Positions 1,311 to 64,000 of a stretch of DNA of 64,000 nucleotides are shown piece after piece. The stretch covers positions 6,324,001 through 6,388,000 of the forward strand of contig CM102288.1 of NCBI GenBank assembly GCA_046563655.1. The letters are read 5' to 3'. A model generated the notes under the pieces. It was not told the origin of the DNA. It was given only the letters and a program-made list of their open reading frames with translations, and ran no database searches. The DNA is from Yuukianura sp. NJ FZ-2021 (Eukaryota). Both the position numbers and the translations under genes were made by a program. Every line of letters begins with the position of its first letter. The first letter of the stretch is position 1.

Positions 1311-4300
1311 CAGGTGGCTTGGGAGGGAGCGTCGTCCATTAGGACACGAGCGATGTAGAGGGCGCAAGTGAGTAGTTTGAGTACCATTCTGATGATGCGC
1401 AGACGCAGACTGGATCTCTGGTTCTTGACAAAGTACAAGTACAGCCGCTCACGCACCGTGTTCTCGTTCACATAGTACTCCACCCGCACTCTAAAACCAA
1501 CATTCAACCACTTTTAGACACAGTAGAATGTGGAGAGGTCATGAAAGGTCAAGGTCATTTGAGTATTTTGGGAGTGTCATGGAGAATCGATAGGCTGGTG
1601 CTCCCATTAGTTTCAGTCATTATCCATATCCTACCCTTAATTGCCTCGTTTCTCCTCCAGATAAGATACACTTTCACCGACTCACAAAACCACTCTCCTG
1701 TACATCCATGTTCATTTTTGCCATAAGCTACTACTTTTTTTTGCTTTCAAAGCAAAAAAAGTAACAATTTTTGCAGCAAAATATTTTGCGTTTCAATTTT
1801 ACAGTGAAGGATTTTCCCTTAGTAAAAGATTCCGTCCTCACTGAAGCAATTTTGCATTTTAAACTTTACAACAAAAAGAGTTTGCCGTTAAACCATACAG
1901 CAAACATTTTGCCTTTAGATCCTTCTATCAGAACAAACTTTGCCCTTGAAAGCCTACAGCAAAAGAAAACTTTGCCCTTGTAGTCCACAGTAAAAGAAAC
2001 GCTATAAGCCAAATGTTTTTCAGTCATATGTAAGTAATTCGGTTTTTGCCTGCAGCAAACATTTTTTGCCTTTAAGGCAGGCGTATTTGAAAATTTGTTT
2101 TTTTTAAACTGATTTTTTTCTTTTGAAATTCGGGAACTCGCCTGCGATGAAGTCATTAGCAAAAATACTAACGATCTGCTCATTTTACTTTAAAAAAGGC
2201 TTTTGAAAAAAGTTTTAATAGCCGACGTGATTAAAAATGTGAATAGGTTTGGGCTAAATCTGGCGTCAGAAAAGGGCGGGAAATTTGAATGGAGCTTTGA
2301 AATGTTGACTAACATGACATTGAAGTGAATGGGGTGAGTGACATATCGTGGTCCATATTTGTTAGGCTAAGGTACATTAGGTTAGTTTGTTAGGTTGACT
2401 TAAAGTAGTTGAGGAAAGGGTGGGATTGATGTGGCTCAATTTGTATGGATGAAACTCTCTCTTTTTATGATTCCCCGCCGTCGTTCCATGGGAAAAGTCA
2501 AGTTTTCTCTTTTTGGAGCAGCTCTTGAGCTAGAATCCCCATTTGTCAAACACATCTTCAAAGTCCATCGCTCAACTTACGCAATTCCTTCCACTTCACT
2601 CCGCAAAAACTTCCACTCAACTCCTCTAGAACATCCTCTTCACAAACATATGCTAAATACCGGAAAACTACTGTTAAACGCCCCCGGCGCTTATTTTCTA
2701 CCTCCTTTTTGCTCAAAAATTGTTGTTGGAGGTAAGGTTTTTTTTTATTAGGTTTTTTTACTATTCGAAAAGTTATTTTTACTTTTCGACTATAAGGCTA
2801 GTGTGTTTTTGTCATAGTATTTCAAGGTTTGGTGATTGATTTTGAGATGTTTTACGGTGTGTGGACGAAGAAAAAGAGCGGAGATTTACGGTATTAAAGA
2901 GAAAGTTAAAAGGAGTGACTTGAGCAAACAGCAAACAACTTCATTGAGCCATTCAATCCCTCTCAAACTTTGTCCCAAATGTCTTCCTTTGAGAGCGGAA
3001 ACTTCAGAAAGCCCGCCAAATTTCAAATTTTACAGAAAGAATTTAGATAAAAAAAATTCCCTCTTTTTCTCTTTTTCCTGGCTTTCTTCAAAACGCTCTC
3101 TCTCGAGGAGTTCCATTGAAATAAGAGTCCAAATTCCAAATAAAATGGCGGAAATCCTTTATTAGGCTCAACAAAGGAGGGAATGAGGGGCGCCAACTTG
3201 AAAAATTGAAAAGCAAACGTAAGAGAGAATGGTTGGTTTGTAATTTGTACTTTTGTGGTGGGTCTCCGGTGGGACTTGGAACGGAGCCACCCACTCCGTC
3301 AACAGCCCAATTAACTCCTCATTCACTCCTTTCTCCCATGTCCACAATTCATTTCTCTCCGACCACAGAGTGGCTTTCACTTGGCACAAACTCAACTCAA
3401 AAGCACACTTTCACCATGGTTAATACAATTTCAGCGACACCCAAATCAGCGACAAATGCCGTTTCAGTCACAAAACGACAAATTTCTGAAACTTTTGACA
3501 ATAGCAAAATTCTAATTGATTCAACTGCAGTTGGTTCGAAAGCATTTCGTCCAGTAGTAAAAATAGTTGGAAATTCATTTCAGGGTTTGGTATGGCTAGG
3601 TGCTTCTATAGTTTCTTAAATTATGACCAATTTACTTTTTGAACTTTTTCATGTATAATTTTTCAATCCATTTGAGTTGAGCTTGAGCCACTTCTTTTGA
3701 TCCTCTAGCATTCAATTTATTTTGAACCAACGTAGTTTGAACCAAAGCATTTTGAATACTTTTCGAGCCACTTCATTCTAAACAATTTCTTTTGACTTTC
3801 TATCAATGTTTGGATAACAGTTTAACCTGTTTGTGTTCCTGTCCTTTTGTATTTTGACTGTTTGAGTTTCTGTAGTTTTGTATTTTGACTGTTTGAGTTT
3901 CTGTAGTTTTGTATTTCGACTATTTGTGTTTCGGTTCTTTTGGAAGTTGGCCCAGAACAATGACGTTTGTTGAGCCAACAAAAACTGAGAGAAAGTGACA
4001 CATTCATCAGAGCCAAATTGCAGAGTAGAGGCTCCAATGTCCCTGGAAACTTCGTCTTTGTTCGGCTGGTGAAATTGAAGGGGCGGAATATTGGAAGAGC
4101 TATGCTCCACTTGTGTATTTGTGGAGGGAGTAACTAATGGAGAACACACTCAAAACAAAGGTTGCCACTCACTTTCCAATCTCATCTGCAGACAACTTTT
4201 AATCGAAATGCAGATTCTTCACTCTCCCCCCAAGTCAAACTACTTTCTTTTATGCCTTTGATCAGCTTTTCATTATTAAGGTTACCCTAACTTTTCATTT

Positions 4301-58923: not shown

Positions 58924-61900
58924 ATGGATTCTTCTTTGGACAAGTTTTGGAGCTACTGTTAGTCTACTACTGTTTTCGACAAAACTATTTCAGAAAACGT
59001 TTTCTTGAACTAACTGGTTTGCTTTTTGTGTGTAGGTTCAAGAGAGGGAAAGGAATTGCACTAGACCGGGTTTACCGAATGCTTCAGAATGTCCTTACTG
59101 GTACAACTTCCAAGTATTTTCAAATTTTTTTGAAAAACTGAAGTTTTTTTTTGAATAACAGATTTGTACTTACCCGCTGATTGGATCAACTTCGAATTGG
59201 CTCAGGTCGGAGATCCAAATGAGCTGGAGAAAATTGTAGCCGTTATCATCGGAATTCACCTTGGTCAAGTCAGTACTTTTCGTTTTTACTTCAATTAAAC
59301 TTTTACTTTTTAACATCAGTTTAACTTACTTTTGTTCCTCTTGTTAGGAAGGGGCTTCCCACTTCACTGTTCTCCCATCAGAGACTTTGTCTCACACATG
59401 CCAAGTGCGGATCAAAGATTTCATTCTTTATGTCATGAAACACGGAAACATCGTCACTTCCGATGCATTGCAATTCATCAGAACTTACGAGATCAACGAA
59501 TCTGGCACCACTCGCAGTTCTACCATCGAGCCACGCGTACTGTTCCCCTCCATTCCAGAAGATTGCGAACAAGAAGATCACTTTGGTGATAAAGGAAATG
59601 AAAACTTCCAGTCTCCTCTCCAGGCACTCAACGAAACTTTTTCGTTTCCAAAGATTCGGGTAACTCAGCTCAAAATTTTGTACCAACTCTGTTTTTAGTT
59701 CAAAATTAAAAATATTTTTTTTAAACCTTTTTTAGTCCTCTGCTGTTTTCACTACCAAGCGACAATTGTCTGCGTCCAGAAACGAGGTAACTGTGCTCCG
59801 TCGTAAAGTTTTTGTGCTGGAAAAGTGTAACCAGGATTTGGAGGAACTTGTGGAAGAAGAACGTGAGAGTCGTCGCAAAACAGAGGTGGAGCTGGATAAG
59901 GAAAGAGAGAATCATAAGAAAACGAAACAAAAACTTGAGAATGCTGTTTCACAACAAGAGATGAATGAGCAGCAATTGTCAGTTTTGTTAACTGAGCAGA
60001 CCAGTCTCAAGACAGAACTGAGCGTTGCCAAGTCCAGATTGGTGGCCACTAGAAACGAAACTACCTCCAGCAACCGAATTACTGCCGAACTGGAGAAGAA
60101 GATCAGAGAACTCGAGGCTCAGATGACCCTGCTCAAGCACAAGTTGGCCACAGCACAAAATGCTGCCAGTACTTTGGACGCTGAAAAAGAAGAACTGGAA
60201 ACCATGCTTCAGAAAACTTCTAACGAACTGGCTTGGACTCAAGCGGAGCTGAAATCGCTGGAATCTCGGCTCAAAGTTTCCGAAGACGTTGCACAAGGGG
60301 CTCAAGAAGAGCTGCGAGCAGCTTTAGCCAGCAACGAATCGCTCAAGCGCATGCTGGAATGCAGGATCAAAATGCTGGAAACCGCTGATCGCAATCTGTC
60401 CAAGGCACTGGAGGCTGAATCAGCTGCGAAACTTTCTGTTCTAAGGGCCCAGGAGGACTTAGCTTCTGCCAAAACCGAAAACGAGACCCTTAAGGGCCAC
60501 TACCAGCATGTCACGGATCAGCTGACTGCCGAACTGATTGAAGGGACCGAACTTCTTGTACAAAAAAGGGACCTGCAACGAGGAATTGAGCTATTGGAAG
60601 AGAAGATTTCAGCGATTGAAAATCAGGCTGCAAGCGATATCCGAGTACTGGAAGCTCAACTTTCAAAAAATCAGCAGGAAATGCACGGACTTGGCTTGCA
60701 GTTGGCAGAATCGCAGCGATTCAGCGATTCCTTGAAGTTTCTAAAAGAAAAAGAAGTTGCTGAACTGGAAGCTGCGCTGAAGAAAAGTATTGAAGAAGCA
60801 CAGGAACGCGGAATGAGAGAAGAGCAACTGAAGCAATCGCTGGAAGCGATTCAACTCCGAAGCGTCCAGGAAATCGCTGAATTGCAGACGGAAAACGCTG
60901 TACTGAAAGCTGAAGTTGAAGCGATTGAATCCAAGACGCGGGAAACCACAAAAGCTCAACTGCAGAAAACTTACACTGCTTCGTTCGAAGAGGCCAAGAA
61001 GCATTTAATTTCTGTTTACCGTAGAGAAATGGAGGCTATCCAGGAAGAAGTAAGAAATTCAGCGATTCAGCGATTGATTATTGTAATTTTCAGCGATTTA
61101 TGATGAATTTTTGAAATTTTCCAGATTGAGAAGCACAAGCGTGAGAAGATACTGCTACGTGCCAATGTCGTGGAGCTGTCAAACAAAGTTTGTGCCTTGG
61201 AACAAGCCAGTAGAGAAAAGGATTTGAAGTTGGCCAAACTGGAAGAGAAGATAAAAGAATTGCAGCAGCAGTCGGCTGCTGAAATCGCTGCGGCCGAGGA
61301 ATCGCTGAATCGTCGCTTGTCCATCCAGTCGACCGGAAGTGGCCGAATGAAGGTCGTTCCGAATGGATCCGGATCTCTGTTTCCGTGTGACGACGAAGAG
61401 GAGTTTCCTTTTAACGAATCAAACTTCGAGGAGCAGATGAAACCACGACGAGGAGGAAACGACATTCCGCAGTTTCAATTAGATGACAAACGAATCTCTG
61501 AGTTGCAGAGACGGAATTCGCTCGTGCCGCCGCATCTCAGATCTGTCTATTCAGTCGAGTATTCAACACTCGGATCAGAAGTTGGACTCAACGAAGAACA
61601 GTTTCGCGTAAGTTAAACAAAAATCAATCAAGGTCAAAAATCTTAGGGAAAAAAAGATTTCCTTTGATAAATCAAAGTTTTTTCCTGAGATTTTGGAAAT
61701 TTTCAACTTTTTTTTTTTTTTGGAAAACTGTGATTTTCAACTTTTTTTAGGCACCGTCTGAATTGGCTCGATCGCTGATCAAATCCGTGAGCGCTCCAAT
61801 CACTGCGAGTATGAATTCAGCTACTACACAAAAGCCTCATCTTATCAATGTAACGAAAGAACAATTGCCGGTAAGTTCAAAGTTTAACAATTTTGAATCC

Positions 61901-62795: not shown

Positions 62796-63933
62796 CTAAG
62801 ATACTTGACTTAGATTCTCCAAAAGATTAGCATAGATCTGCACACCGTCCAGAAAAACTTTCTCATTAAGAAACTCGTCATGGTCGTGCAGAAGTACAGG
62901 CGTGTTGATCATCGGTGAGAAACCGAGAGCGGGAATTCCGATCTGCCGAATATAACGAATGTCAGTCGCTGCAGGGAAGATCTTCGTCTTTGCTTTCAGT
63001 TTACTAAAACAATTTAACACAAAAAACAAAGTTAAAAACTAAAAAGTCGAACCTGGCGGAGGAAGTTGGCGTCAGTTCTGGCCGGAAAAATCTTTGTAAT
63101 GGCCCTCTTCCCTCTGTGCAATCACAACAACTTCAAAGGCGGCAAAATTCAAAATGAGAGGTCAAAGGTCAACTTACAGTTTGTCCAGAGTGGCTTTGAA
63201 CGTGGTCCACCATATATTATCGTCTGTGAGTGCAGTTGGAGTCGTTGCGTCTGCGTAGTTGCTCCGGACAGAGGTGTAGGTCACTCCTGGACCAGCTTCT
63301 TCACAAAACCTGTTGAATCTCTGCCGAAGTTCTGCGAGATCCCAGGTAGGACACACACGCATGTCAAACACAACGGACAGTTCTGGAGGGACGATGTTCG
63401 CTTGCAGTCCACCCTGCAAAATTTAACAAATGTTTTGAATTTCTAGAATTTTGAAGTTCGGAATTCAAATTTTAACATTTTGAAATTCAGAATTTTGAAA
63501 TTTTGGAACTGACACTTAGCATGGTCATGTTAACGGAAGTGACATCGCCGAGGTCGACATTTGGTCCAGAGTTGAACAGCGCTTTTTGCTCAGCCCGAAT
63601 CGCCAACATGCGATTGATGATGTGGTGGATCTTCTCGGCAGCGGTGTTGTCCGGCAGTAAACTGGCATGTCCAGTTGCTCCGACAGCAGTGAACCGAATT
63701 TCTGGGAATTTAAAATTTTGAAATTGGATTGAAAATTTGATCAAAATTTTTGAAAAATCAAAAATCTTGAAAACTGAAACACTTACGCCAGAGCGTTCTT
63801 TCTCCGTAGTAGACGAGGTAGTTGTCGTCTGGACTGGCAATTCCTTCGTCCAGACCAAATCCAACGTTGAGAGCAGCGAATTCCGGAGTTTTCACGAAAC
63901 AAGCCATTCCCTTCTCACCACCAACCTCCTCAT
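62796..63933 (-). CDS. ACY1: Aminoacylase-1 (M20 family), 3' part; the 5' exons lie right of the window
   Basis: [84 protein letters not shown]. Confidence 0.95.
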
Positions 63934-64000
63934 CTACTCAAACAGCCAAACATTAAAGTTATGTACATGATGTAAATTTCATGTTTTATGTAACTATGTA

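Follow-up and report, generated by a model that had tools for sequence, protein, structure and literature searches.

The last exon of the aminoacylase-1 gene (ACY1) in a 64,000-nucleotide (nt) stretch of Yuukianura sp. NJ FZ-2021 (contig CM102288.1, positions 6,324,001 to 6,388,000; hereafter the window) opens with a 61-nt coding segment, copy B, and a second version of this segment, copy A, sits inside the intron just upstream. Judged from its sequence, this proximal copy is a real and old duplicate that has been retained as coding sequence. We consider it fairly probable that both forms of ACY1 are made in the source species, with copies A and B used in a mutually exclusive manner. To a fuller proposal we would give an even chance: the exclusive pair would have survived the loss of the intron that followed the distal copy, the CAG of the old junction would now act as an internal acceptor, the spacer between the copies, too short to be excised, would force the donor of copy A onto that site, and the arginine of the substrate pocket would have been relocated from TDxR to PAxTD.

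If both junctions are used, a housekeeping deacylase of springtail-like hexapods would exist in two versions, distinguished solely by a loop that lines the pocket. This would provide a compact natural experiment on substrate specificity in the M20A peptidases, and it would show that an exclusive choice can survive the fusion of one of the exons with the terminal exon when the former junction is taken over as an acceptor. For annotation, ACY1 models in this region should carry two isoforms, and 63113-63053 should not be treated as plain intron.

Two copies of a 61-nt coding segment

A 174-nt intron separates the last exon from the exon that we call e3, and it contains copy A (coordinates in Table 1). 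Both copies are in the same phase, each opening on the third base of a codon that is split and closing at a codon boundary, and they are identical at 31 of 61 nt and at 11 of 20 amino acids (aa). Copy A is bordered by an AG and a GT of its own and copy B has an acceptor without a donor, so that only one member of the pair carries both splice sites expected of an independent exon. An earlier note on this DNA had called the two segments paralogous and equal in length and phase, with copy B ending in CAG, and its coordinates and peptides all proved correct. In an ungapped BLOSUM62 scan of the window with the copy B peptide (six frames, 127,882 positions; background mean -20.7, standard deviation 9.5), copy B itself scored 99, copy A 54 and the next best position 26; the resemblance between A and B is not due to chance. 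The view that the likeness is a coincidence within an intron, and that no exon exists, can draw on the shortness of the segment (20 residues); it has to contend not only with this gap in score but also with the exact phase, length and splice dinucleotides and with the recurrence of the arrangement at a second locus described below, and we regard it as refuted, its probability being next to nil.

The pattern of divergence is that of a coding sequence. Counted by codon position, A and B are identical at 14, 12 and 5 of 20 sites, and positions one and two together (26/40) are significantly more alike than position three (5/20; Fisher p=0.0057). With third positions at the level of unrelated sequence and first and second positions kept, copy A is old and has been maintained for its coding content. 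Between the window and its closest relative, a locus termed L004, the default copies are far more alike, with identity at 19, 18 and 12 of 20 sites; by that measure the duplication took place well before these two lineages split.

Of 228 fetched proteins, 191 supplied the segment, in 109 distinct 20-residue forms, and the conservation of this loop in ACY1, which the earlier note had asserted, is borne out by them. Copy A retains every invariant or near-invariant position, namely I/V8, F9, P10, G/A11, T13, D14, Y/F17, I/V/L18 and R19. Copy B matches the family consensus and shares 13 of 20 residues with the corresponding segment of isoform X1 of the springtail Folsomia candida. The departures of copy A are concentrated at two sites: position 12 is Gly or Ala in 108 of the 109 segments, the lone Ser being that of Folsomia isoform X2, and copy A has Arg; position 16 is Arg in 95 of the 109, and copy A has Asn.

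The boundaries of the duplicated unit are themselves old. When metagenomic contigs were scanned with the last exon, 54 loci emerged. Fifteen of these, insect-like in character, have a separate 1+60-nt exon with AG before it and GT after it, and in 19 of the 54 the match to the last exon starts from residue 20 or 21. The separate exon in these 15 loci indicates that the 61-nt unit and the phase-0 intron behind it are ancestral, and copy A keeps exactly those boundaries. In one insect-like genomic locus (L005:2947-3147) a 61-nt unit that follows ag is fused to the last exon and reads SIKLKPSIFPGGTDSRYVRE, continuing directly into VGIPALGF. Judging by this fusion, the intron behind the 61-nt exon may have been lost more than once. 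Two loci with weak matches (L052 and L054, E=3e-4) were left out, and an 18-residue match in L053 was rejected as a chance hit lying in unrelated sequence.

Splicing routes and the arrangement in relatives

Four ways of joining the exons can be compared by reading frame. When e3 is joined to 63003 onward, giving the B form, the frame is open to the stop at 62798-62796; when e3 is joined to copy A and then to 62942 onward, it is open to the same stop and the product has the same length. Joining e3 to copy A and then to the full last exon brings an immediate TAA (63003-63001), and joining e3 to 62942, with both copies skipped, shifts the frame. Only the 62943/62942 junction gives an exact in-frame replacement of B, so the AG at 62944-62943 is the one route by which copy A can enter a full-length enzyme. 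This candidate acceptor coincides with the phase-0 intron position of the 15 loci with a separate exon, and the Gln codon at the junction is CAG in all five sequences compared (the window and L001-L004). A candidate branch point, CTGAC in the Thr-Asp codons of copy B, lies upstream of it; at this place L002, a locus that also bears an alternative exon, has CTGAT and L004, which has no copy A, has CGGAC. As only three sequences are involved, the contrast between those with and those without copy A is suggestive at most.

On these grounds we propose the following scheme. The ancestral 61-nt exon would have encoded a strand, a loop and a helix of the catalytic domain, the loop being the FPAATDxR stretch that lies at the substrate pocket. 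It would have been duplicated in tandem; the distal copy B would have lost its following intron, to become the start of the last exon, and the proximal copy A would have kept the ancestral acceptor and donor. The duplication and the loss of the intron behind B could have happened either way round. In the default mRNA, e3 would be spliced to 63003 and copy A skipped; in the alternative mRNA, e3 would be spliced to copy A and the donor of A (63053/63052) to the CAG at 62943/62942, A replacing B residue for residue. Splicing of A to the acceptor of B itself would be disfavoured by steric exclusion across the short spacer, of 49 nt in the window and 34 nt in L002. A joining of A to B would be unproductive because of the immediate stop, and since 61 nt is 3n+1, double inclusion and double skipping would both be unproductive. 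Predicted RNA folding was unremarkable around the exons in the window (62920-63180, z=+0.55) and in L002 (3808-4085, z=-0.98), and thus offered no hint of docking-selector pairing.

The stop that follows double inclusion also invites another explanation, in which copy A is a poison or regulatory exon: spliced to 63003, it would meet the TAA directly after its own end, and the truncated protein or unstable mRNA would tune ACY1 output. The acceptor of copy B, ttttag, does look stronger than the internal one. Such an exon would have no need of a conserved peptide, yet copy A keeps the invariant residues and diverges in the manner of coding sequence. Moreover, the place of the stop differs between loci, immediate in the window and after 13 codons in L002; the 34-nt spacer of L002, set against 70 nt for the shortest other intron of that gene, makes splicing from A to B unlikely there; and database models of Folsomia join the alternative segment in frame. 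We therefore hold a purely regulatory role to be quite improbable.

L002 is a locus with the same layout as the window. It is a genomic contig whose downstream ACY1 gene is 71% identical to the Folsomia protein over 150 aa. Exon e3 ends there in TT/gtaagg and is followed by a 94-nt intron, a 61-nt upstream copy A′ (ttag/A…GAG/gtcagt, encoding DLKINSRIFPAGTDMVFIRE), a 34-nt spacer and a 61-nt B′ that ends in CAG, is fused to the last exon and runs into LGIPAFGF. The seven other introns of the gene measure 82, 91, 141, 70, 92, 78 and 94 nt, a range of 70-141, so that the spacer is less than half as long as the shortest of them. The A′ peptide shares 12 of 20 residues with the Folsomia X2 segment, compared with 14 of 20 for the B forms of the two, which indicates that the alternative exon is conserved between L002 and Folsomia. 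The contig holds two tandem ACY1 paralogues, at 14-1539 and 2270-4222, and the upstream 61-nt copy is found only in the second. This downstream paralogue is the closer match to Folsomia protein P0042; the upstream one has a single fused copy, GLKILPKISPGSTDMRYLRP.

In Folsomia candida, two RefSeq isoforms, XP_021957852.1 (X1) and XP_021957853.1 (X2), are both 404 aa long and differ at nine residues, all within 331-350, which is the segment homologous to A and B; in X2 it reads KMQLNSSIFPASTDIMFIRE. The GenBank model OXA50220.1 (402 aa) also carries the alternative segment. With the window, Folsomia shares the gene family and the swapped 20-residue segment, and its two products are of equal length. 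Like copy A, the Folsomia alternative replaces the second Ala of PAATD (by Ser), the Arg of TDxR (by Met) and the Tyr (by Phe). The NCBI pipeline builds extra isoforms from transcript alignments, and may have done so for the Folsomia gene. The Folsomia RefSeq and GenBank models (P0121 and P0122) join the alternative segment two residues apart, with FIRE/LEIPAF in RefSeq and, further downstream, FIRE/IPAF in GenBank; an acceptor located within an uninterrupted exon that offers several AGs would be expected to give such an offset. A search with residues 321-360 of X2 returned only its own cluster (one candidate of one), in a database collapsed at 90% identity, which hides isoforms. The segment swap is already present in Folsomia as database isoforms, and the unusual point of the window is that the distal member lies within the terminal exon.

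The relationships of these sequences were examined in a 27-row tree. The window and L004 are sisters (support 96/85; 69% aa identity over 147 columns), and the window, L004, L002, Folsomia and Allacma group with eight transcript-derived proteins (support 87/96, below the star threshold). In the intron of L004 (434-518) we noticed gcgcag/gttaagt, an acceptor-like and then a donor-like motif at about the place of copy A; it may be the scar of a lost exon or a chance occurrence.

The earlier note had named conservation in relatives as a check and had inferred two exclusive isoforms, with the CAG at the end of copy B as a possible internal acceptor. Its interpretation is supported in part: the layout of L002 and the Folsomia isoforms agree with it, as does the fact that the internal acceptor is the sole in-frame route, and the absence of copy A from L004 does not. 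As regards conservation, the copy is also absent from the upstream paralogue of L002.

Several observations weigh against exclusive use of A and B in the source species. The nearest relative, L004, has copy B fused to the last exon and no copy A in its 84-nt intron, from which it follows that at least one lineage can do without A. No marked pyrimidine tract precedes the internal acceptor, and in L002 the stretch from the candidate branch point to the CAG contains two GAG sites; as for the tract, the constitutive acceptors of L002 include gagaacag and aaaattcag, so that a weak one is normal in that gene. A 49-nt intron may be spliceable in the source organism. The Arg12 and Asn16 of copy A each occur in none of the 109 family segments, which relaxed constraint would explain equally well, and the codon-position test on the L002 pair is only borderline (24/40 against 6/20, p=0.054). 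The Folsomia isoforms are database models, and the copy A peptide is just 8/20 identical to the Folsomia alternative, as it is to that of L002, compared with 9-11/20 for B forms. Over 20 residues such pairwise identities are compatible with either one or two origins of the alternative exons.

Some of these points would also fit a copy A that is the relic of a once-working exclusive exon that became unusable or unused in this lineage, for instance when the intron behind B was lost, and is now drifting with its frame and splice sites still intact. In favour of a relic one may count the missing copy in the sister locus, the two residues unseen in the family, the lack of a donor behind B, which leaves A dependent on a candidate acceptor, and the transcript-derived relatives: among 120 hits and the members of 20 clusters, all that show the loop are B-type, the Folsomia models being the exception. 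A drifting exon sits poorly with an open frame of exact length, intact AG and GT, the full set of invariant residues and saturation confined to third positions. It is also hard to square with L002, which retains the fused layout with an intact alternative exon close to that of Folsomia X2, showing that the fused state is compatible with long-term retention. We find the relic unlikely, and mutually exclusive use of the two copies is the reading that we carry forward.

The substrate-pocket loop and known exclusive exons

As modelled by AlphaFold (mean pLDDT 93; 94 and 92 for the segment blocks), the segment of Folsomia X2 follows a helix (318-329) and forms a strand (334-339), a loop (340-344, PASTD) and a second helix (345-349). 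By this model the X2 segment is compatible with the fold; since the input alignment is almost all B-type, the confidence of the model is not independent evidence, a further point to be set against an exclusive pair of working enzymes.

A functional counterpart of the loop can be sought in DapE, a distant homologue of ACY1, with a mapping that depends on alignment. With phmmer, FPAATDIRF of ACY1 was aligned with TGGTSDGRF of DapE (1vgy_A in the printed alignment), with low posterior confidence at this place; transferred to the enzyme HiDapE (3ic1_A, offset 17), the second Ala of PAATD falls on Thr325 and the Arg of TDxR on Arg329. Thr325 of HiDapE interacts with the scissile amide of the substrate and with its proximal carboxylate (PMC5919655), and Arg329 hydrogen-bonds docked ligands (PMC10815964). 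The HiDapE loop Thr325-Ser-Asp-Gly-Arg329 would thus be the counterpart, and the A-type exons change exactly the residues aligned with 325 and 329.

The same two positions are altered in all three alternative copies (window, L002 and Folsomia), where Ala at position 12 becomes Arg, Gly or Ser and Arg at position 16 becomes Asn, Val or Met; in each of them, moreover, Phe replaces Tyr at position 17. In the window, the change from AATDIRY to ARTDANF seemingly moves an arginine from position 16 to position 12. The alternative enzyme would accordingly carry Arg for Ala at the Thr325-aligned position and Asn for Arg at the Arg329-aligned one. A specificity change is a reasonable inference given that the loop is conserved and aligns with the substrate-contacting TSDGR of DapE, and the A form probably has a different substrate preference. 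The solved human fragment 1q7l_B has a Gly where the family has Thr13, presumably as the T347G mutant.

Mutually exclusive exons derived from tandem exon duplication are a well-known kind (Pillmann et al. 2011, PMC3228551). Introns too short to splice and exon lengths that shift the frame are both documented means of keeping such exons exclusive. According to two surveys, Caenorhabditis elegans has five exclusive-exon clusters with intervening introns too short to be excised, those under 40 nt being flagged (PMC4165533), and in human 57 clusters have a distance from donor to branch point of less than 50 bp, while 60% of clusters are not a multiple of three in length (non-3n), double inclusion or skipping being unproductive (PMC5740500). 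The copies in the window resemble such exons in being adjacent, homologous, equal in length and phase, non-3n and separated by a very short intron. They differ in that copy B is fused to the terminal exon, so that the alternative form would call for inclusion of a cassette exon together with use of an internal 3′ splice site. The human survey excluded candidates that overlap annotated terminal exons (PMC5740500); with such candidates set aside, standard screens for exclusive exons would miss the fused layout. A literature search on mutually exclusive exons in aminoacylases, on the aminoacylase of Folsomia candida and on the ACY1 loop found no paper on this swap.

Exon swapping in this family may extend beyond the segment studied here. 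Two ACY1 isoform models of Macrosteles quadrilineatus (XP_054275221.1 and XP_054275222.1, X1 and X2; P0015 and P0137) are both 404 aa long and differ in one contiguous block. Unlike the window, this block comprises residues ~298-337, corresponding to the neighbouring upstream exon, and the FPxxTD segment is identical in both. The comparison suggests a second, independent exon swap in the ACY1 family. Isoforms X1 and X2 of Ostrea edulis were considered as a parallel and rejected, their differences being scattered and not confined to one exon block.

The ACY1 gene and its surroundings in the window

By its sequence, the window holds the 3′ portion of a gene for aminoacylase-1 (peptidase M20A), and the ACY1 of this organism clusters with springtail sequences. 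The gene extends beyond position 64,000, and the exon that ends in GERTLW is the first to lie wholly within the window (Table 1). In tblastn with Folsomia candida protein P0042, every exon in the window was matched, in order, at 45-76% identity per segment. Pfam places the M20 dimerisation domain (PF07687, cut-off 21 bits) in e3 (78 aa), which forms the end of that domain and leaves 2 nt of a split codon at 63178, and the Peptidase_M20 catalytic domain (PF01546) in the last exon (68 aa; 28 bits, cut-off 24.6, E=2.5e-6). A search with these 68 aa gave 145 of 166 candidates at E<=1e-3; almost all named homologues were aminoacylase-1 or N-acyl-aliphatic-L-amino acid amidohydrolase, and the solved relative is human Aminoacylase-1 (1q7l). 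The C-terminal LLHDHDE block, whose His is invariant in the family alignment, is present, and the N-terminal metal ligands lie past the end of the window. Neither tblastn nor the peptide scan found a second ACY1 copy elsewhere in the 64 kb.

Table 1. Elements of ACY1 in the window, in window coordinates; a slash in a sequence context marks the exon boundary
Feature	Position	Strand	Details
ACY1 exon (ends GERTLW)	63787..63933	-	P0042 residues 142-191 by tblastn, 76% identity; contexts gtag/AT and TGGC/gtaagt
ACY1 exon (ends NMTMLS)	63514..63701	-	P0042 residues 191-253 by tblastn, 65% identity; contexts cccag/AA and AGT/gtcagt
ACY1 exon e3 (ends FKATLDK + CT)	63178..63413	-	PF07687, 25 bits; contexts tgcag/GG and AAACT/gtaagt
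Intron between e3 and copy A	63114..63177	-	64 nt; GT 63177-63176, AG 63115-63114
Copy A, alternative exon	63053..63113	-	61 nt = 1 nt + 20 codons; preceded by cacag, followed by gttcga
Spacer between A and B	63004..63052	-	49 nt; shortest ACY1 intron in the window
Last exon	62796..63003	-	Copy B plus remainder; acceptor ttttag
Copy B	62943..63003	-	61 nt = 1 nt + 20 codons; ends in CAG, runs into IGIPALGF
Candidate branch point CTGAC	62961..62965	-	Thr-Asp codons in B; 20 nt upstream of the internal acceptor, no intervening AG
Candidate internal 3′ splice site AG	62943..62944	-	A form would remove 63052-62943 (110 nt)
Remainder of last exon (ends SQVS) and TAG stop	62796..62942	-	Follows copy B without an intron; stop 62798-62796

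On the plus strand, two long open reading frames at 59736-61616, of 455 and 169 aa, converge on the 3′ end of ACY1; they abound in E, K, L and Q, look coiled-coil-like and matched no Pfam family at E<=0.01. Besides the 64-nt intron before copy A, the ACY1 introns in the window measure 85 and 100 nt, and these two (minus strand, about 63702-63786 and 63415-63513) consist largely of repeated low-complexity motifs of the ttcaaaatt and aaattt type.

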